50,043 nucleotides of DNA, taken from positions 1 through 50,043 of the forward strand of contig CAZWFH010000001.1 of the NCBI GenBank assembly GCA_964632105.1, in the 5' to 3' direction. The notes below the pieces were generated by a model. It did no database searches. It saw only the letters and a program-made list of their open reading frames with translations, and had not been told where the DNA came from. This document shows, piece by piece, positions 4,625 to 49,950 of this stretch; within the stretch, counting starts at the first letter, position 1; every line of letters begins with the position of its first letter. The position numbers were made by a program, and so were the translations under genes. Origin of the DNA: an uncultured Atribacterota bacterium. GTDB lineage: Bacteria; Atribacterota; Phoenicimicrobiia; Phoenicimicrobiales; Phoenicimicrobiaceae.

Positions 4625-5558
4625 CTACAACCATTTTTTCTTCCTGAAAAAAATTAGCATTATAATACTTACGACTGCCATTATAAACAAAGCAGCAAAA
4701 TATCCCCAACAAAATTGAAGTTCTGGAATATAGAAGTTCATTCCATAAATGCCAGCAATAAAAGTTAAAGGAATAAATATAGTAGCTATTATGGTTAATA
4801 CTTTCATCACTTCATTCATTTTATTGCTAATACTTGAAAGATAAATATCAAGCATCCCAGAAATCATATCTCGGAATGTTTCTATTGTATCAATTACCTG
4901 AATGCTATGGTCGTAAACATCCCTTAGATATATACCGGTAGATTCTTCAATAAGCGATGATTCTGTTCTTTCTAAGCCGCTTATTATTTCTCTTAAAGGC
5001 CAAACTGATTTACGTAAAAATATCATGTCTCTTTTTAAGTTGTGAATTCCTTGTAAGGTATTTGGTGTAGGATTAGCTACTAATTTTTCCTCCATTTCCT
5101 CAATCTTTTCACCAGTTCCTTCTAAGATTACAAAATAGTTATCAACTATGGCATCTATTCAAGGTATATGCAAGATAATCAGCTCCTGATTTTCTCATTC
5201 TTCCCTTTCCTCTTCTAATTCTCTCTCTGATAGAATTGAAAACGTCACCTTCTCTCTCTTGAAAAGAAATAACGAAATTTAAACCAAGAATTAAGCTAAC
5301 TTGCTCGATCTCTATTTCACTCTTTTTTTCATTATAATAAATCATTTTCAAGATAATAAAGATATAATCTCCAAAATCTTCTATTTTGGGACGTTGATCA
5401 GTATTCATAATGTCTTCTAATAGAAGAGGGTGCAAACCTACATATTCTCCGATTTTTCCCATGATTTCAGCGTCGTGAATGCCATTTATGTTTATCCAGG
5501 TAACAGCGGGCTTATCCCCCAAAAGGAAAACATTCCTCCTGCACCTTGCACCTTGCAA
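4625..5558 (-). pseudogene. corA: Magnesium/cobalt transporter CorA, frameshifted and 5'-truncated
   Basis: The C-terminal ORF carries YGMNF and two TM helices. The N-terminal ORF carries VTWININGIHD...HPLLLEDI. Shifting frame near 5150 restores TL-IDAIVDNYFVILEGTGEKIEEMEEKL. About 45 N-terminal residues are missing, and the only 'start' is a TTG inside a TTGCAAGGTGCAAGG repeat word. Confidence 0.8.
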
Positions 5559-5621
5559 CCTGAAACTTACAGCTCTGACCTACACATACTAAATACTAAC
5601 GACCAACAACTGACGACTATT
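5540..5621. repeat. Mosaic word-repeat patch (CAAG words plus ACTAACGACCAAC words)
   Basis: CACCTTGCACCTTGCAACCTG and AAATACTAACGACCAACAACTGACGACTATTTTG. The latter is nearly identical to 38545-38577. Confidence 0.75.
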
Positions 5622-5951
5622 TTGCAAATTGATATCCACCGCCCGGATAGAATCATCTTTTTAAGAAAAGAAGTTAAACTAACTCCTACAGGATTTTCCT
5701 TGCTCTATCTTCTGGCTCAACATAGAGAAAAGGTAGTTAGTTATGAGGACATTTTAAAGGACTTGTGGAAGGGTGAAGAGGATGCAATTTACACCCGGAT
5801 AAATTATCATATGTGTAAAATTAGAAAAGATATTTCAAAAATAATGGATAAAAAAGAAGATAGCATAAAGAAGATTGAAAATATTTTTAAAGCAATCCCC
5901 GGCAGAGGTTTGATGTTAGACATTAAAGAAAGAGAATTAAAGTTAATTTAA
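5622..5951 (+). CDS. Stand-alone OmpR/PhoB-type winged-helix domain protein (possibly a regulator remnant)
   Basis: IDIHRPDRIIFLRKEVKLTPTGFSLLYLLAQHREKVVSYEDILKDLWKG...IPGRGLMLD fits the trans_reg_C pattern. There is no receiver domain, only a TTG start at 5622 and no clear RBS. The track ORF portion 5430-5621 is antisense to corA. Confidence 0.4.
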   Translation: MQIDIHRPDRIIFLRKEVKLTPTGFSLLYLLAQHREKVVSYEDILKDLWKGEEDAIYTRINYHMCKIRKDISKIMDKKEDSIKKIENIFKAIPGRGLMLDIKERELKLI

Positions 5952-5977: not shown

Positions 5978-6229
5978 TTATTTTTTTTCTTTATATTTTG
6001 AATATAGTTTACAAAACTCTTCTAAGCTTATCTCTAAATCTTCTCTGATTATTGTACGCAAAAGCCCTTTAGGTATATCTTTATTTTTATGAACGGGGAT
6101 AGTAGTCACTCTTTTTTGGTCTTCAGTTCTTAATCTTACATGGGAGCCCTTCGTTCTAACAATTTTAAAACCCAAAGATTGCAAAAATTTTATAAATTCC
6201 CTGCCTTTAATTGTGGGCAATTTATGCAT
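5978..6229 (-). CDS. hicA: HicA-family mRNA interferase toxin
   Basis: 83 aa. GREFIKFLQSLGFKIVRTKGSHVRL...IPVHKNKDIPKGLLRTIIREDL is a typical HicA signature. Confidence 0.85.
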   Translation of the reverse strand: MHKLPTIKGREFIKFLQSLGFKIVRTKGSHVRLRTEDQKRVTTIPVHKNKDIPKGLLRTIIREDLEISLEEFCKLYSKYKEKK

Positions 6230-6443
6230 TTTTAACTATTTCCAATTCTCTAAATCCTATAAATTTATTAATTTCTTCTACATCAGTTTCTTCAAGACAC
6301 ATCTGAATAACTTCTTTTATGTTTTCTAAAGCCTCATCAATAGTTCCGCCATAAGTATGACAGCCTTTAAATAAAGGACAACTTACAATATAATAACCAT
6401 CCTCATCAAGTTCAATAATTATGGGTAAATGTAATTTTTCCAT
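6222..6443 (-). CDS. hicB: HicB-family antitoxin (UPF0150 fold)
   Basis: Start at ATG 6443, preceded by AGGAGG. IIIELDEDGYYIVSCPLFKGCHTYGGTIDEALENIKEVIQMCLEE. Overlaps the hicA start by 8 nt. Confidence 0.8.
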   Translation of the reverse strand: MEKLHLPIIIELDEDGYYIVSCPLFKGCHTYGGTIDEALENIKEVIQMCLEETDVEEINKFIGFRELEIVKNA

Positions 6444-6552
6444 TTTCCTCCTCTTATTATAACAAGATAACACTTTTTTATTAATTATATCATAAAATCA
6501 AATATTTTATTTTCCAAAGTAAAACCATTTTATTCATAGATATTTCATCGGT

Positions 6553-6685: not shown

Positions 6686-7264
6686 ATGCAAAAAGAAAAA
6701 TTAAATAGACAAACCAAATCATCCAAAGAAGGTTATATCATTATGCCAAATAATTTTTTAGCAGAATGGATAAGGGTAATGGGTAAAGGTCCGGTTTTAC
6801 TCTATATCCAACTGCTTACCTATTGTCATAAAGAAAAAGATATAGCCTGGCCTGCACTGTCCACTTTAGGCGATAGTCTAAATATGTCCAAAAATAGTCT
6901 GATCAGTTATCAAAAAACTCTCCTTGAGTATGGCCTGATTAAAAAGATCACAGGAAGAAGAACTGCTCAGGGAAATTATCGGTCTAACCTCTATAAGGTT
7001 ACTCCTATAAGGAGTCCAAAAAATGGACCCGGCCAGGTCCAAAAAATGGACACGGGAAGTCCAAAAATTGCACTTGACCAGGTCCAAAATTTGCACCCTA
7101 ACAGTACTAATCTTAACATTACCAAATCAACAACAACAAATGGAGAAAATGTTGTTGTTAATTTTAAAAAATTAAAAGAGAAAGGAGAAGAAAAGATACT
7201 GGCAATTAGAGAACAGTTGATTAACTTAGATATTGAAGAAAGCTTAATTGAGAAATTGCTTTAA
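6686..7264 (+). CDS. Replication initiator-like winged-helix protein (phage O / DnaD-like organiser), ended by an in-frame TAA
   Basis: RBS GAAGGAGA. IMPNNFLAEWIRVMGKGPVLLYIQLLTYC...WPALSTLGDSLNMSKNSLISYQKTLLEYGLIKK fits the HTH_36-type Rep N-terminus. The ORF contains four internal iterons. Confidence 0.6.
   Translation: MQKEKLNRQTKSSKEGYIIMPNNFLAEWIRVMGKGPVLLYIQLLTYCHKEKDIAWPALSTLGDSLNMSKNSLISYQKTLLEYGLIKKITGRRTAQGNYRSNLYKVTPIRSPKNGPGQVQKMDTGSPKIALDQVQNLHPNSTNLNITKSTTTNGENVVVNFKKLKEKGEEKILAIREQLINLDIEESLIEKLL
7014..7096 (+). repeat. Four dyad-symmetric 15-bp iterons at 22-23 bp spacing inside the Rep-like ORF (candidate origin)
   Basis: GTCCAAAAAATGGAC at 7014 and 7037, GTCCAAAAATTGCAC at 7059, GTCCAAAATTTGCAC at 7082. 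An AT-rich stretch follows. Confidence 0.6.
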
Positions 7265-7591
7265 AACTATCCTGCTGAAAAGATCGAAGAGAAAATAGAC
7301 CTGCTTCTTATCAAGAGGAATATCCAAAGTCCCGCCGGCTGGCTGATGGCAGCACTTAAGAATGATTATCAGGATTTGGAACAGGAAGGATTTGATGAAG
7401 AACCTGTAGGAGGAAGCGAGGATCTCAAATGTAGGGGCACGATGCATCGTGCCCTCAACGAATCGGGACAGATAAATCCGTCCCCTACAGAAACAAAGAT
7501 AAACTCTGGAGATAATAAAAAAATCCTCTCCAGTGAAGAAGTAATAAGACGGTTTAAACTTCTAAGACAAGAATTAATGGCAATGAATTAA
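7265..7591 (+). pseudogene. In-frame continuation of the Rep-like gene (C-terminal domain), cut off by a TAA stop
   Basis: Same frame as 6686-7264. NYPAEKIEEKIDLLLIKRNIQSPAGWLMAALKNDYQ is a typical Rep/DnaD-like C-terminal motif. It also carries an in-frame palindromic insertion at 7430-7457. Confidence 0.45.
7430..7457. repeat. TGTAG-family palindromic hairpin (copy inside coding sequence)
   Basis: TGTAGGGGCACGATGCATCGTGCCCTCA. The core GGGCACGATGCATCGTGCCC is a perfect 20-nt palindrome. Confidence 0.8.
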
Positions 7592-7603
7592 TGCACAAGA
7601 ATT

Positions 7604-7660
7604 TGTAGAGACACGGCGTGCCGTGTCTTCTTCTTCACCACGGCACGCCGTGGTGCTACA
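7604..7660. repeat. Compound double-hairpin repeat (type B), copy 1
   Basis: TGTAG-AGACACGGCGTGCCGTGTCT-TCTTCTT-CACCACGGCACGCCGTGGTG-CTACA. A near-identical copy lies at 9311-9367. Confidence 0.85.
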
Positions 7661-7707
7661 TTTCGTATCTTGTAACTAAAAACTATTTTGATAAAGGAGA
7701 AAAATAC

Positions 7708-8022
7708 ATGTCCGAATTAAAAGAATTAATCGCTAAAGCCAAACAAAGAAACGTAAAAGCAATGGAGGAACTGTTCAACCAATTTAAACCTCTGTTGAAA
7801 TCAAGAGCCAGGAAGTATTCTCTATACGGTTTAGAATATGAGGATGTTTTTCAGCAGGCCGCCCTGCTCTTTATCCTGGCTGTTTACCATTATAAAGAAA
7901 AACCTCCTACTACCTTTGCCGGTTATATGAAAAAGAGAATCGACTGGGGATTGTGGGTCTATTATCGGGAATATCTTAAACAACAGATAGAAATATCCAG
8001 TGGCCTAAAAATAGGTGATTGA
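7708..8022 (+). CDS. Sigma-70 family region-2-only protein (RsoA-like half sigma)
   Basis: ATG 7708 follows AAAGGAG. ELFNQFKPLLKSRARKY...YEDVFQQAALLFILAVYHYKEKPPTTFAGYMKKRIDWGLWVYYRE fits sigma region 2.1-2.4. There is no region 4. The track ORF start at 7618 lies inside a hairpin repeat. Confidence 0.7.
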   Translation: MSELKELIAKAKQRNVKAMEELFNQFKPLLKSRARKYSLYGLEYEDVFQQAALLFILAVYHYKEKPPTTFAGYMKKRIDWGLWVYYREYLKQQIEISSGLKIGD

Positions 8023-8027
8023 GACTT

Positions 8028-8055
8028 GTAGGGGCGTATTGCCATACGCCCCTAC
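8028..8055. repeat. TGTAG-family palindromic hairpin in the sigma r2/r4 junction
   Basis: GTAGGGGCGTAT-TGCC-ATACGCCCCTAC: 12-bp arms and a 4-nt loop. Confidence 0.85.
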
Positions 8056-8075
8056 CAAATATCAGAAGGAGGATA

Positions 8076-8282
8076 ATGCTTTTGAGTAGATTAGAAAATA
8101 TCTTACTAAACAATAATTTAGAAGAAAATTATAATCTTTTGACTAAAAGAGAAAGAAAAATTATCAATTTGTATTATCTTGAGGGATATAAGGATAAAGA
8201 GATAGCAAAGATTTATGGTGTTTGCCAGCAATCGGTAAACGAAAGTCGTAAAAAAGGAATAAAAAAATTAAAATATTTTTAA
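8076..8282 (+). CDS. Sigma-70 family region-4-only protein (SigO-like half sigma)
   Basis: ATG 8076 follows AGGAGG (8067-8072). LTKRERKIINLYYLEGYKDKEIAKIYGVCQQSVNESRKKGIKKLK is a region 4.2 HTH. Confidence 0.7.
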   Translation: MLLSRLENILLNNNLEENYNLLTKRERKIINLYYLEGYKDKEIAKIYGVCQQSVNESRKKGIKKLKYF

Positions 8283-8437
8283 TTTTTTTTAAAACTACCC
8301 TGTAAAATCACCTCTTTTTTGCTCTTACTAAGTAGAGGAAGTTTTTAGCTATGCTAAAAACTGTGATGAGTAATAAGTAATGAGTGATAAGCCTAATTAT
8401 TTAAGTAATTGTATACTCATTACCTGTCACATATTAC

Positions 8438-8461
8438 GCAATTAACCTACAGGTTAATTGC
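8438..8461. promoter_or_regulatory. Perfect 11-bp inverted repeat just upstream of the RBS of the 8486 gene
   Basis: GCAATTAACCT-AC-AGGTTAATTGC, followed by TAAGAAGGAGGTG. Confidence 0.4.
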
Positions 8462-8485
8462 TAAGAAGGAGGTGAAAAAAATAAG

Positions 8486-8758
8486 ATGGCCAGCGAATTA
8501 GGAGAAGTAACCAGTTATAAGAGACTGTATATGCAGTTTAGAGATAGTGCAGCTAAAACCATAAATCTAACCTTGAATAATCCCAAGAACGTAGATGATG
8601 GAGACTATGCTGACTTTGCGGCACAAGATGTCGCTGTTGAAGGAGTGATGGATACTATCATCGCCAAGAACATCTTCCATAATGATGGTAATGACTTAGT
8701 AGCCAAAGTAAATGCAAGAATCCTTGATTATAAGTCTACTGATGTTATGGATGTGTAG
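8486..8758 (+). CDS. DUF2922/DUF1659-like small protein
   Basis: 90 aa with RBS GAAGGAGG and no signal peptide. The pattern YKRLYMQFRD...KTINLTLNNPK...MDTIIAKNIF...LVAKVNARIL resembles the small DUF1659/DUF2922 proteins that accompany YvrJ in Firmicutes. Confidence 0.4.
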   Translation: MASELGEVTSYKRLYMQFRDSAAKTINLTLNNPKNVDDGDYADFAAQDVAVEGVMDTIIAKNIFHNDGNDLVAKVNARILDYKSTDVMDV

Positions 8759-8760
8759 GA

Positions 8761-8790
8761 AATAATGGTTAACCATTATTTCCAGTTTTT
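8761..8790 (+). terminator. Putative intrinsic terminator
   Basis: The palindrome AATAATGGTTAACCATTATT is followed by TCCAGTTTTTT. Confidence 0.4.
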
Positions 8791-8809
8791 TGTTTATAGT
8801 TTTTAGTTT

Positions 8810-8837
8810 GTAGGGGCGTATAGCGATACGCCCCTAC
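8810..8837. repeat. TGTAG-family palindromic hairpin
   Basis: GTAGGGGCGTAT-AGCG-ATACGCCCCTAC. It differs from the 8028 copy only in the loop. Confidence 0.85.
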
Positions 8838-8910
8838 CACTTGCAACATGCAACCTGTATTTCTAATTGGTCAATCGGTAAATTAACAAACGAGTGAAAG
8901 GAGGAAATCC

Positions 8911-9291
8911 ATGTTAGAAGCAATATTAAGTAAGTATCTACTCAATGCCCTACTATTATCTCTCGTCTCTATCTTTTACAGTTTTCTAAAGAACAAATTA
9001 GGAGAAGACAGAGCAAGTACCATTAAAGAGGCTATTCTTGCTGCCATGCTCTGGGCTGAAGAAGAGCTGGGGATAGGAAATAGTAATCAGAAATGGGATA
9101 TAGCCTGGAAGAATTTAATAGAGATACTGGCTGATAAGAATATCAGTTTAAGAAAGAGCGAGGAGAAAACAGTAAATATGATGATGAAGGCCAATGTGGA
9201 CAGGATCAATCGGCAGACCTATGATGTCCTGTTGAAGAAGAAATTAATAAAAGATAAAGGCCCTATCCAGCAGTCACTGTTGATTAAATAA
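8911..9291 (+). CDS. Holin-like protein (LL-H-type pattern)
   Basis: 126 aa with RBS AAAGGAGG. An N-terminal TM helix is followed by AILAAMLWAEEELGIGNSNQKWDIAWKNLIEILADKNISL, which resembles LL-H family phage holins. It sits directly upstream of a peptidoglycan peptidase gene. Confidence 0.45.
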   Translation: MLEAILSKYLLNALLLSLVSIFYSFLKNKLGEDRASTIKEAILAAMLWAEEELGIGNSNQKWDIAWKNLIEILADKNISLRKSEEKTVNMMMKANVDRINRQTYDVLLKKKLIKDKGPIQQSLLIK

Positions 9292-9310
9292 CCTCTCGTG
9301 AGGAGGATTT

Positions 9311-9367
9311 TGTAGAGACACGGCGTGCCGTGTTTTCTTTTTCACCACGGCACGCTGTGGTGCTACA
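9311..9367. repeat. Compound double-hairpin repeat (type B), copy 2
   Basis: TGTAGAGACACGGCGTGCCGTGTTTTCTTTTTCACCACGGCACGCTGTGGTGCTACA. Confidence 0.85.
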
Positions 9368-9461
9368 CTCACTCCTTGCAACTCATATCTTGTATTTTAA
9401 TTGGTCAATCGGTAAATTAGTGAATTGGTCAATTAACTAACGACTGAAAGGAGTTTGTTCC

Positions 9462-9842
9462 ATGCAAATGTTAAATAGTATAAACAATATAAACATCGCT
9501 CCACACTTCAACTTATCTGAATTTGCCTGTCCCTACTGTAAGAGAATAATGTTACGTCCCCTTCTCTTAGAAAAATTAGAAAAACTAAGAAAGATAATTG
9601 AAAAACCGATTCACATCACTTCCGGATATCGCTGCTCGAGATATAACCATCAAATTGGAGGGGTAACAAACAGCTACCACTGTATCGGACTGGCAGCAGA
9701 TATTAAAGTAAAAGATATCAATCTGATTACCCTTTTGGAGATATGTGAGAATATAGATTTTACTGGAATCGGGTTTTATGAGAAGAAGAACTTCCTGCAT
9801 CTGGATGTGCGGCCTACCGAACGCACCCGCTGGAGGGAATAA
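9462..9842 (+). CDS. Peptidase M15A (Peptidase_M15_3) zinc cell-wall peptidase, endolysin-like, no signal peptide
   Basis: HFNLSEFAC...ITSGYRCSRYNHQIGGVTNSYHCIGLAADI...FLHLDVR supplies the H/D/H zinc ligands of the LAS/M15 fold. Confidence 0.8.
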   Translation: MQMLNSINNINIAPHFNLSEFACPYCKRIMLRPLLLEKLEKLRKIIEKPIHITSGYRCSRYNHQIGGVTNSYHCIGLAADIKVKDINLITLLEICENIDFTGIGFYEKKNFLHLDVRPTERTRWRE

Positions 9843-9843
9843 A

Positions 9844-9884
9844 AAGTTGCCCAAAGGTGCCTGGCACCTTTGGGCAACTTTTTG
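9844..9884 (+). terminator. Strong stem-loop with T-run
   Basis: AAGTTGCCCAAAGGTGCC-T-GGCACCTTTGGGCAACTT followed by TTT. It ends 17 nt before the next start codon. Confidence 0.7.
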
Positions 9885-9900
9885 AGAAAGGAGTGAAGTA

Positions 9901-10170
9901 ATGGATGTTAAAACATTGTCTGAAGTGATCGCTAATCAGGGCTTCCCTATCGCCTTATCGATACTCTTAATCTTTCGCATCGATAGATTTATGCAGGAGA
10001 TAGTAACTGCCCAGAAAGATGGTTATCGTCAAATATTAGAAAATACTAAAGAGATACATAATACAATCACTAGCTTAAACCAGCAAAATCGAGAATACTA
10101 TTCGTTGCGCTTTTCGGAAGTGCAGAAAGAACTCTCCGGAATGAAGATAGAGTTGGGAAAAATTGAATAG
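9901..10170 (+). CDS. YvrJ-like small membrane protein
   Basis: VIANQGFPIALSILLIFRIDRFMQEI matches the YvrJ-family core (N-GFPI-hydrophobic-LL-R-I/E). RBS AAAGGAG. Confidence 0.45.
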   Translation: MDVKTLSEVIANQGFPIALSILLIFRIDRFMQEIVTAQKDGYRQILENTKEIHNTITSLNQQNREYYSLRFSEVQKELSGMKIELGKIE

Positions 10171-10192
10171 AAATAAAAATGCAATAAAATCA

Positions 10193-10243
10193 GGGTAAGC
10201 TATAAAAAAATTAGCGTCTTTTCTTTAGCTTACCCTTTTTTTA
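10193..10243 (+). terminator. Putative terminator closing the island
   Basis: GGGTAAGCTA...TAGCTTACCC followed by TTTTTTT. The loop is long. Confidence 0.5.
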
Positions 10244-10426
10244 TTTTGTCATCAAATTTGCCAATATGTAACTACCTTATAACTATATTTCAAATCATAA
10301 TATAAATTAAGATAAATCCCTTGAGTCTTAGAAATAATTTTAAAAATTTAGCGAATAGATAATATGATTTATATACTGATAGTTAATAATCTAATCTCTC
10401 TTTTCTAAATAATTACAGTCACAGTT

Positions 10427-11323
10427 TTAATCGAATTTTATATATTTCTTGTTAAATTCAGCAACCCCGATTACCGTATCTGCTCCGCCATAATAGACCA
10501 GGATTCTGTCACCAATCTCTACCTGACCACAGCTAAATACCACTTTGGGGATATATCCATTTATTTCCCAATCGAGTTCGGGTTCCAAGATTGGCTGAAT
10601 CTGTCTGGCCAGAACCTTTGAAGGGTCATCTAAATCGAGTAATGCTGCCCCCAGGCAGTAACCTTTTTCCTTGCTTGTGCCGTGGTATATTAAAAACCAA
10701 CCCTGCTCTGTTTTGATGGGAGGACCGGCTATTCCAATTTTATTATATTCCCAATCTGAATCAGGTATGGGCTTCATTATAATCTTATGATCATACCAGG
10801 TCTCTAAATCATCAGAATAGGCTATCCAGATATCCGGTTCCCTTCGGTGAAACATCACATACTTGCCTTTAATCTTCTCGGGGAACAGGGAAGCATCTTT
10901 ATTGGGTTCATCAAGGACTATTCCCTGTCTTTCCCAGTGGATAAGGTTTTTGGAAGTTGCCAGACAAATTCTGAAGTCTTCCGGGAATCTACCCCTATAT
11001 CCGGTATACATCATATAAAATATATCACCTATTTTAATTATTCGGGGGTCTTCGGGACCCCGAGCCTCCTGTTCTACATCATTGGGTAAAATTGGTTGTT
11101 CTAAGCGGTTGAAGTGAATCCCGTCTTTACTTACTGCATAGCCCAAGCGATTAATATAGGGTCCTTCTTTACCATTGGGGGCAATATCGGTAGCTCGGTA
11201 GATCATATGTACCAAACCATTGTCATATATTGCGGCACAGTTAAATACTGCGGTTGCTTCCCAGGGATGCTCTTTTTTTGGTAATAAGATAGGTTGTTTT
11301 GATAGTCTTTTTAGTTTTATCAT
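10427..11323 (-). CDS. GH130 family beta-mannoside phosphorylase/glycosidase (short form)
   Basis: 298 aa. NCAAIYDNGLVHMIYRA, GPEDPRI, YMMYTGY, DASLFPEKI, YHG and YYGGADT are five-bladed propeller GH130 hallmarks. Confidence 0.85.
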   Translation of the reverse strand: MIKLKRLSKQPILLPKKEHPWEATAVFNCAAIYDNGLVHMIYRATDIAPNGKEGPYINRLGYAVSKDGIHFNRLEQPILPNDVEQEARGPEDPRIIKIGDIFYMMYTGYRGRFPEDFRICLATSKNLIHWERQGIVLDEPNKDASLFPEKIKGKYVMFHRREPDIWIAYSDDLETWYDHKIIMKPIPDSDWEYNKIGIAGPPIKTEQGWFLIYHGTSKEKGYCLGAALLDLDDPSKVLARQIQPILEPELDWEINGYIPKVVFSCGQVEIGDRILVYYGGADTVIGVAEFNKKYIKFD

Positions 11324-30964: not shown

Positions 30965-31137
30965 TAAATTAATTTACCAATTTACCGATTAGTCGATAGT
31001 ATTTAATTAGCGTATAGCGTACAGCGGGTAGCGTATAGGCACGGGGAACAATTGCGGGAAAAAATACGAATACTAAAGACGCAAAAATTTCCCACAGTCT
31101 GCCCGTAGGACAGGCGTCTCGCCTGTCTAAAGTAAAT
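30965..31137. repeat. Mosaic word-repeat patch plus hairpins downstream of clpB
   Basis: TTACCAATTTACCGATT; GTCGATAGTATTT; AGCGTATAGCGTACAGCGGGTAGCGTATAGG; hairpin GACAGGCG-TCTC-GCCTGTC. Confidence 0.75.
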
Positions 31138-49734: not shown

Positions 49735-49950
49735 AAAATGGGGAAACACGGTGGTTTCCTTCTTCCGCGGGAACGACAAAGGAAAGATACAAAAATAATA
49801 ATGAAAAGACGAAATAGTGTATCGCATACAATTTTATAATAATTTTTGGTTTATTGGTTGTAACTGGTTGTAGGGGCACAATGAATTGTGTCCTCGCCAT
49901 ATTACTGCCTGATTTTTTTCTGCGGGCACGATGCATCGTGCCCCTACATC
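49735..49950. repeat. Hairpin repeat cluster (TGTAG family and related)
   Basis: GGAAACACGGTGGTTTCC; TGTAGGGGCACAATGAATTGTGTCC (degenerate); GGGCACGATGCATCGTGCCCCTACA (49924-49948), which has the same core as 7430-7457. Confidence 0.75.

Follow-up and report, generated by a model that had tools for sequence, protein, structure and literature searches.

A putative two-subunit sigma factor encoded by adjacent, separate genes in Atribacterota

The stretch of DNA analysed here (hereafter the window: 50,043 nucleotides (nt) from an uncultured Atribacterota bacterium, the complete metagenomic contig CAZWFH010000001.1) carries on its plus strand two small adjacent genes that are predicted to encode, one each, the domain 2 (sigma2) and the domain 4 (sigma4) of a sigma-70 type factor. 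These genes, called A and B in this work, are read in different frames (7708 mod 3 = 1; 8076 mod 3 = 0) and each of them has its own Shine-Dalgarno (SD) sequence, as had been pointed out in the original prediction, which was made from the letters of the sequence. The features of the locus are the following:

7694-7699, plus strand: SD of gene A, AAGGAG, 8 nt 5' of the start codon
7708-8022, plus strand: gene A, 104 amino acids (aa), sigma2 only; ATG at 7708, TGA at 8020-8022
8023-8075, plus strand: A-B spacer of 53 nt, which holds a palindromic element and the SD of gene B
8026-8057, plus strand: junction palindromic element, 32 nt, GC-rich, with a hairpin at 8028-8055
8066-8072, plus strand: SD of gene B, AAGGAGG, 3 nt 5' of the start codon
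8076-8282, plus strand: gene B, 68 aa, sigma4 only; ATG at 8076, TAA at 8280-8282

The assignment of both domains is based on sequence profiles and structural models. Gene A matches the Pfam family Sigma70_r2 with 25.5 bits (cutoff 24) and gene B matches Sigma70_r4 with 33.7 bits (cutoff 24.1), which agrees with the earlier claim that 7708-8022 encodes region 2 only and 8076-8282 region 4 only. On the NCBIfam model TIGR02937, which has 165 positions, gene A spans positions 2-69 and gene B positions 103-162, the latter with 43.3 bits against a cutoff of 42.9; the other NCBIfam matches were generic sigma models below their family cutoffs, and no SigO- or RsoA-named model appeared among them (for gene B, among the best 25 of its 51 matches). 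On phrog_351, a phage sigma profile of PHROGs, gene A falls on positions 489-575 and gene B on positions 661-724, that is, in the same order as in the DNA. The AlphaFold2 (AF2) model of gene A has four helices and a predicted local distance difference test score (pLDDT) of 93.4, and its top-50 fold matches in the PDB found by Foldseek are all sigma2 domains, for example SigH and pro-sigmaK (template modelling score, TM, 0.76). Compared with full-length sigmas, the region 2.2 motif residues D46 and Q49 are retained in gene A, and the aromatic residues F70, Y73, W80, W83, Y85 and Y89 are invariant across its family. The model of gene B has a pLDDT of 84.7, its best fold matches are nearly all sigma4 domains, and its recognition helix is predicted to be formed by residues 51-66; gene B also matches the YlxM/UPF0122 and the GerE/LuxR-type helix-turn-helix (HTH) families. 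Profiles and models thus point to a sigma-70 domain 2 on gene A and to a sigma-70 domain 4 HTH on gene B.

The conservation of this arrangement was studied in 107 related loci plus the window, i.e. 108 loci carrying gene A; the relatives of the A-B locus are all from Atribacterota. A survey of relatives for split and fused versions had been recommended in the original prediction, and it found the split in 94 of 94 informative loci: gene B lies downstream of gene A as a separate open reading frame (ORF) in these 94 of the 108 loci and is fused to it in none, sigma2 always precedes sigma4, and both domains are never found on one polypeptide. Related to this, HMMER, run exhaustively over 1.84 billion cluster representatives, gave 14 matches at E<=1e-10, all of them of 110 aa or less, and in the next tier (E about 5e-7) mostly ordinary sigmas of 160-230 aa with 27-40% identity, so that no fused close relative was found in these representatives. 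A concatenated A+B query gave 768 matches, of which the 120 listed are region-2-only proteins, mostly of 100-115 aa (one of 124 aa), with 79-94% identity; the query with gene B gave 688 matches, and the 120 listed span 59-92 aa. Cluster look-ups of the short sigma2-only matches gave no names.

Both genes bear the signs of selection. The pairwise ratio of nonsynonymous to synonymous divergence (dN/dS) is 0.11 for gene A and 0.24 for gene B, at a dS of about 1.1, and the SD and the start codon of gene B are kept in 70 of 72 unique loci. The A-B spacers range from a 4-nt overlap to 334 nt, plus one of 1.1 kb, and all three frame relations between the genes are seen, in 24, 34 and 36 loci; in L016 and two further loci the stop of gene A overlaps the start of gene B as TTGA. 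The same architecture is present in about 90 independent assemblies (ENA, JGI, NCBI and Logan), one of them a single-cell genome. The split is old, conserved and under purifying selection across Atribacterota. The earlier view of both ORFs as the halves of one small sigma factor is in agreement with a split that is kept in the relatives with the two halves under selection.

Gene B is lacking in 14 loci. Thirteen of them end less than 400 nt past gene A, and the remaining one (L035, region 902-2179) is a deletion, in which gene A is followed directly by a holin-like gene, with no gene B, no DUF1659 or DUF2922 gene and no copy of the motif described below. Many metagenomic contigs (L007, L027, L045, L101 and others) end tens of bases past the stop of gene A, which points to assembly breaks in the A-B spacer, with its many palindromes, or in the variable B module.

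The best match to gene A from outside its family is P0135, with 35% identity over sigma2, from the digester contig L108. In L108 and L111 the sigma is fused (about 190 aa), and the genes after it are DUF1659, DUF2922 and one that Pfam assigns to YvrJ proper, so that this sister family (L108, L111 and L112; only four sequences are known) shares its downstream gene families with the Atribacterota pair but encodes a single polypeptide. A TAnTAAGT element, related to the motif of the window, and a hairpin precede DUF1659 in it. Gene A aligns to residues 6-82 of the fused sister sigma and the HTH of gene B to residues 136-181; hence the break in Atribacterota lies in the sigma2-sigma4 linker, which is where the original prediction had asked whether the junction would map in an unsplit homologue. 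In L108 (170-739) there is a single in-frame TGA, between NLT and KNTY, at a position that is Arg in L111, where the gene reads through; this codon may reflect a genuine nonsense mutation, stop-codon recoding or an error in the sequencing. L108 was considered as a second split family and rejected, as it has one in-frame TGA in an otherwise fused sigma, and L109 was rejected as a split as well (a contig of 0.58x coverage with overlapping halves, probably an error). In the contexts of two full-length matches, P0136 and P0138, no DUF1659, DUF2922 or YvrJ genes were found.

The hairpin of the A-B spacer at 8028-8055, GTAGGGGCGTAT-TGCC-ATACGCCCCTAC, is 28 nt long and has a perfect 12-bp stem and a 4-nt loop, just as it had been described for the 53-nt junction. 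Further copies and a second palindrome type are found nearby:

8808-8839, plus strand: second copy of the junction palindrome, by sequence match
7604-7660, plus strand: second palindrome type (TGTAG...CTACA, double hairpin), upstream of gene A; second copy at 9311-9367

The junction hairpin is not a chance feature, since it has the second copy at 8808-8839 and about 15 spacers in relatives carry the same element at the same place. The TGTAG...CTACA type lies upstream of gene A also in L008, and in the window two palindrome types, with two copies each, thus lie within 1.8 kb. GC-rich palindromes, in many cases stacked, occur in 48 of 68 unique spacers and can be grouped into at least five families that recur. 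No palindrome is present in five unique spacers (L016, -4 nt; L060, 5 nt; L091, 7 nt; the others overlapping or of 43 nt), and the 74-nt spacer of L001 has no GTAG palindrome. In L039 (1454-3072) the 1.1-kb spacer consists of stacked palindromes without a credible ORF. The palindromic elements cluster from about -1.5 to +3 kb around gene A, with none in the outer flanks; in the window, seven matches to the palindrome families (five distinct elements) fall in 7435-9367 and two elsewhere, at 31109-31127 and 49924-49943 (GACAGGCG...CGCCTGTC and GGGCACGAT...ATCGTGCCC). No Rfam family was found for hairpins or leaders in 7300-10500.

The junction element resembles repetitive extragenic palindromes and bacterial interspersed mosaic elements (REP/BIME) in being a GC-rich, intergenic, multi-copy palindrome with GTAG/CTAC ends, with several families stacked, and differs from them in that the Atribacterota elements are concentrated in the cassette of genes around A and B instead of being evenly spread. 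A scan of cassette ORFs and of ten ORFs on the flanks (1-5.6 kb and 10.4-14.6 kb) found no transposase of the REP-associated tyrosine type (RAYT). The palindromes behave like REP/BIME-type elements that were later colonisers of the intergenic spacers of the cassette, where they may, for instance, stabilise mRNA or set the A:B ratio. It had also been suggested that the split arose by insertion of the repeat into a normal sigma gene. This has been rejected, because the TGA of gene A lies 5 nt upstream of the hairpin, split loci without palindrome exist and the frame relations are varied. Removal of the element was the check proposed for it: the 32-nt deletion (8026-8057) does put gene B in the frame of gene A, but the TGA at 8020-8022 stays in place.

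Directly 3' of gene B there is a bipartite motif (8293-8337), found in one copy per locus wherever there is enough sequence and unique within the 50-kb window. Its parts, and a hairpin that comes after it, are these:

8293-8308, plus strand: variable 16-nt block AACTACCCTGTAAAAT, a candidate for the -35 region; its TA (8303-8304) corresponds to Gln51 of gene B
8309-8325, plus strand: constant 17-nt spacer CACCTCTTTTTTGCTCT, conserved among loci
8326-8331, plus strand: -10-like TACTAA, constant part (TAnTAA), with the variants TTATAA, TAATAA and ATATAA in relatives
8332-8337, plus strand: GTAGAG, constant part of the motif
8340-8362, plus strand: hairpin AGTTTTTAGC-TAT-GCTAAAAACT, 2-3 nt past the motif, a possible 5' transcript end

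No further copies of the -35-like block or of the -10-like element beyond chance were found in the window, and a generic sigma70 promoter scan gave no promoter at the motif. Of 54 unique loci, 28 have the hairpin after the motif, and its stem comes in two sequence versions. The 17-nt stretch and GTAGAG are conserved like coding sequence at a dS of about 1, in all related loci. The sequences CCTCT and AGAGG, which are complementary, flank the -10-like element on both sides.

The variable block covaries with the recognition helix of gene B. When gene B is sorted into seven classes by its helix residues 53 and 55-57, each class has its own block, with 0 mismatches in 52 unique combinations:

Helix residues 53-57 SVNES: block ACTACCCTG
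Helix residues 53-57 AINYI: block TTTCTTTTG
Helix residues 53-57 NVNRQ: block TGACTGTAG
Helix residues 53-57 VINRL or IITRL: block GGGTGSTG
Helix residues 53-57 AVNKS: block GGTAGGTTG
Helix residues 53-57 NIFKI: block AGGTTTCTTTT
Helix residues 53-57 NIYKL: block AGGTTACTTTT

Within classes I, II and V a finer correspondence is observed: Gln51 is always accompanied by TA and Arg51 by CG at block positions 11-12, Arg51 being encoded by several different codons. Intermediates also occur (CA with His or with Arg at residue 51, and TG with Gln), and out of 172 columns (68 of B plus 104 of A) no other than residue 51 tells TA and CG apart in each of the three classes. A single residue-to-base pairing that recurs in three backgrounds is not easily explained by linkage. 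Arginine prefers guanine and glutamine prefers adenine, with which the Gln51-TA and Arg51-CG pairing agrees. The covarying residues (51, 53 and 55-57) fall in the N-terminal half of the predicted recognition helix. By eye, residue 51 of B is presumed to align with R584 of sigma70, which reads position -31, and the class-defining residues, presumably aligned with R586, R588, Q589 and I590, track bases further upstream; by this analogy the orientation of the helix on the block fits a sigma4 on a -35 element. If transcription started just past GTAGAG, TACTAA would occupy -12 to -7 and TAAAAT -35 to -30, with a 17-nt spacer between them.

The B classes are shuffled relative to gene A, which hardly varies. 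L013 and L014 have identical A and differing B proteins, L076 and L077 have identical A and different B classes, and the window and L028 share 97% identity in A, yet belong to B classes I and II, respectively. In pairs below 93% A identity the B class is shared in about 15%, the random expectation being 0.17. Gene B and its block therefore move as one unit between a conserved gene A and the conserved constant motif. It can be speculated, with somewhat less than even confidence, that splitting is of adaptive value: the sigma4 gene and the -35 block that matches it would make up a compact, swappable specificity cassette, and the classes, at least seven, a recognition code. If so, recombination would re-address the same sigma2 subunit to orthogonal promoters, and a natural amino-acid-to-base code for sigma4, e.g. 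Gln51-TA and Arg51-CG, would be at hand.

The interpretation proposed here is that A and B constitute a working two-subunit sigma factor of Atribacterota, and not a broken gene; its probability is estimated at roughly 0.7. It builds on what the computation established, namely the conservation of the split, the selection on both genes, their folds, the covariation of helix and block and the shuffling of B plus block relative to A; from these we infer that A and B bind RNA polymerase and act jointly, that the motif serves as a promoter, with its register, and which genes make up the regulon. The product of gene A would supply sigma2, that is core binding, -10 recognition and melting, and the product of gene B would supply sigma4, for recognition of the -35 element. 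Together with the RNA polymerase core they would most likely start transcription at 8293-8337, the recognition helix of B reading the variable 16-nt block and A reading the constant TAnTAA/GTAGAG, and the promoter would drive an operon of DUF1659 (where present), DUF2922, holin-like, M15 endolysin-like and YvrJ-like genes. As regards the origin, the split of a sigma gene in its sigma2-sigma4 linker would date back to an ancestor of these bacteria, with palindromes colonising the spacers later.

Several points weigh against this proposal: i) the evidence for two subunits, although it supports them well, is comparative throughout; ii) the hairpin-filled spacers of up to 1.1 kb may uncouple the expression of A and B; iii) no copy of the motif was found upstream of gene A; iv) the block lies less than 60 nt from the 3' end of gene B and less than 100 nt from the helix codons, so the class-level association is expected from linkage alone, and only the within-class Gln/Arg-TA/CG pattern exceeds it; v) if the R584 analogy holds, TA/CG would lie near -31 with about 21 nt to TACTAA, not 17, an awkward register; vi) an ordinary promoter would not require a spacer as conserved as the 17-nt stretch; vii) in minimal cassettes, which consist of A, B and the YvrJ-like gene, the latter is the sole candidate target.

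Among the alternatives, the one that survives best, unlikely as it is, holds that both proteins act independently, gene B being a free-standing HTH regulator that binds an operator 3' of its own gene and gene A a separate sigma2-like protein that binds RNA polymerase, for example as a decoy or, like T4 gp55, as an initiation factor that uses the -10 element only, so that there would be no two-subunit sigma. The matches of B to the YlxM/UPF0122 and GerE/LuxR-type families are in line with it, as are the poor fit of the register to the 17-bp sigma70 geometry and the sometimes very long A-B spacers; besides, the covariation shows that B reads the block, not that the reading occurs on RNA polymerase. 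On the other hand, A and B are always neighbours in the order of one sigma and both fit, in that order, on one sigma profile, the closest relative that shares the downstream genes has a fused sigma, and the block stands at a fixed distance from a constant -10-like element.

The remaining explanations are excluded for practical purposes by the conservation of the split, the selection on both genes, the diversity of spacers and frames and the SD of gene B itself. Two of them, pseudogenisation and assembly artefact, had been named in the original prediction as ways in which it could fail. A dead sigma gene, interrupted by a palindromic repeat that inserted into it, would agree with the repeat at the junction and with the halves being in different frames; this reading is very improbable, as the stop lies upstream of the element, the split is conserved in all informative loci, including palindrome-free and overlapping ones, both dN/dS values are far below 1 at saturated dS, and gene B retains its SD and start codon. 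Equally hard to credit is a single fused protein made by recoding, through a frameshift or through ribosomes that skip the hairpin, as happens in T4 gene 60. The window, where a stop and right after it a stable hairpin lie in a gap of some 50 nt, does look superficially like that bypass site, but the spacers, of -4 to 1100 nt, contain many stops and show all three frame relations, an SD and a start codon of gene B itself are found in 70 of 72 unique loci, and landing at the matching GAT (8072-8074) meets a stop after four codons. Finally, a stop and frame change due to assembly or sequencing errors, of the kind seen in low-coverage contigs of the sister family and with nothing specific to the A-B locus, can be dismissed given the same architecture in about 90 independent assemblies, a single-cell genome included.

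The genes A and B belong to a cassette whose full order in relatives is helicase, DnaD-like/HTH_36, A, B, DUF1659, DUF2922, holin-like, Peptidase_M15_3 and an 89-aa YvrJ-like gene; the genes that flank it vary among genomes. In the window the cassette genes other than A and B are the following:

6686-7264, plus strand: DnaD-like/HTH_36 gene (Pfam HTH_36; PHROG DnaD-like helicase loader, E=9e-13); it precedes gene A in relatives
8486-8758, plus strand: DUF2922 gene (Pfam DUF2922, E=8.5e-16), the first gene 3' of the motif
8911-9291, plus strand: holin-like gene (Pfam Phage_holin_6_1, 24.4 against a cutoff of 24.9; PHROG holin, E=2.4e-6)
9462-9842, plus strand: Peptidase_M15_3 (endolysin-like) gene (Pfam E=6.8e-24; PHROG endolysin, E=1.6e-35)
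9901-10170, plus strand: YvrJ-like gene, 89-aa membrane protein, the conserved last gene of the cassette

The phage-type neighbours of the sigma pair are thus a DnaD-like initiator, a holin and an endolysin, without structural phage genes, and neither an IMG/VR scan nor tblastn of phage and plasmid collections found viral or plasmid relatives. A YvrJ-like gene 1.6 kb downstream had been mentioned in the original prediction. Its link to the cassette is real; the product of 9901-10170 matches Pfam YvrJ below threshold (20.5 bits against 29.5) over its N-terminal 22 aa or so, a sub-threshold match that recurs in three diverged members (about 21 bits).

DUF1659 is missing from the window, and relatives such as L001 and L025 carry it between B and DUF2922. 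The roughly 200 nt between gene B and DUF2922 (8283-8485) hold 7-nt repeats of the AGTAATA type at 8369-8391 and, just before the SD of DUF2922, the palindrome GCAATTAACC-TACA-GGTTAATTGC (8438-8461); in L013 and L014 the same module of palindrome and SD is found in front of A or B. Just 5' of the M15 peptidase gene, at 9399-9434, the 8-nt unit AATTGGTC is repeated in tandem (4.5 copies). Between this gene and the YvrJ-like one there is a perfect 43-nt palindrome with 21-nt arms (9841-9883), conserved in L001 (6331-6371), which could be a terminator, an attenuator or an operator.

Upstream of gene A the cassette of the window is altered. Its DnaD-like gene is shortened (192 aa against 283-330 aa in relatives), and an 81-aa ORF at 7346-7591 (plus strand) resembles the detached C-terminus of this gene; the GC palindrome GGGCACGATGCATCGTGCCC (7435-7454) lies inside the reading frame of that ORF. 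The cassette helicase of relatives is a ResIII/DEAD protein of 680-995 aa with a C-terminal OmpR-type winged helix (Trans_reg_C), of which a 173-aa ORF at 5430-5951 (plus strand) is a C-terminal remnant with 36-39% identity. The helicase core in relatives resembles the HamB-type defence helicases (PADLOC, E=8e-32), and this was the sole resemblance, since PADLOC gave no defence-system match for the cassette proteins. A hicA/hicB-like pair of two overlapping 83-aa ORFs, recognised by eye, is located between the helicase remnant and the DnaD-like gene (5978-6473, minus strand) and is not at that position in L001, L019 and L020. A gene for a corA-like Mg2+ transporter, which adjoins the cassette on its left side, is found in two ORFs, 4625-5095 and 5142-5558 (both minus strand; Pfam CorA positions 139-292 and 4-108, respectively), and this broken gene is either a frameshift pseudogene or the result of a sequencing error.

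In Bacillus subtilis, SigO and RsoA carry sigma4 and sigma2 on separate proteins and transcribe oxdC-yvrL, yvrJ and their own operon (PMC8103513, PMC7826278). According to the published descriptions, the Atribacterota pair is similar to this system in the separation of sigma2 and sigma4, in the adjacent and co-oriented genes and, if the conserved YvrJ-like gene downstream is indeed a target, in the link with yvrJ. The order of the genes is sigO (sigma4) followed by rsoA (sigma2) (PMC8103513), and in Atribacterota it is reversed, with sigma2 first in every locus, the opposite order to yvrI-yvrHa that had already been remarked on. The sizes of the subunits also differ, being about 22.5 kDa for SigO and 9 kDa for RsoA (PMC10141391) and about 12 kDa and 8 kDa for the sigma2 and sigma4 of Atribacterota. 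Furthermore, the Atribacterota cassette belongs to another phylum, is without oxdC-type targets and has holin- and endolysin-like genes. Reversed order and differing sizes would fit an origin independent of SigO-RsoA. No report of split sigmas in Atribacterota was found in the literature searched.

Other systems share part of these traits. In Staphylococcus aureus, SigS is reported to induce the DUF1659/DUF2922 pair sroAB about 1000-fold (bioRxiv 10.1101/2022.10.19.512975). SigS is, like the Atribacterota pair, a small alternative sigma tied to DUF1659/DUF2922, but it is a single polypeptide, and sroAB appears to be a SigS-induced locus apart from the sigS locus, whereas the Atribacterota genes adjoin the sigma pair. 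The proteins gp55 and gp33 of phage T4 can be viewed as a split sigma (PMC12867686). However, gp33 is not a homologue of sigma4 and the late promoters of T4 have no -35 element, whereas B of Atribacterota is a true sigma4 domain with an apparent -35-like site. The small sigma factor Xpf turns on the late operon of PBSX, which ends in holin and lysin genes. An association of Xpf with the PBSX prophage and with induced cell death has been described in B. subtilis (PMC10141391). The likeness here is in the phage-type neighbours (DnaD-like, holin and endolysin), which surround the Atribacterota sigma pair as well.

Split-domain sigmas were named as an unexplored area in the 2021 reclassification of extracytoplasmic function (ECF) sigma factors (PMC7826278), and SigO-RsoA has so far been the one well-known cellular two-protein sigma. 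The Atribacterota pair would be a second split-sigma lineage, with hundreds of variants across the phylum, in which the domains keep their natural order, the subunits are minimal and no close relative has been found fused. AND-gate circuits have already been built from SigO-RsoA (PMC10028694), and the Atribacterota pairs could supply compact orthogonal parts for circuits of this kind. The comparative data predict both the promoter and the residue-base reading, and they suggest that splitting permits the modular exchange of promoter specificity. They would also tie the recurrent small-protein genes DUF1659, DUF2922 and YvrJ to dedicated sigma factors outside Firmicutes.

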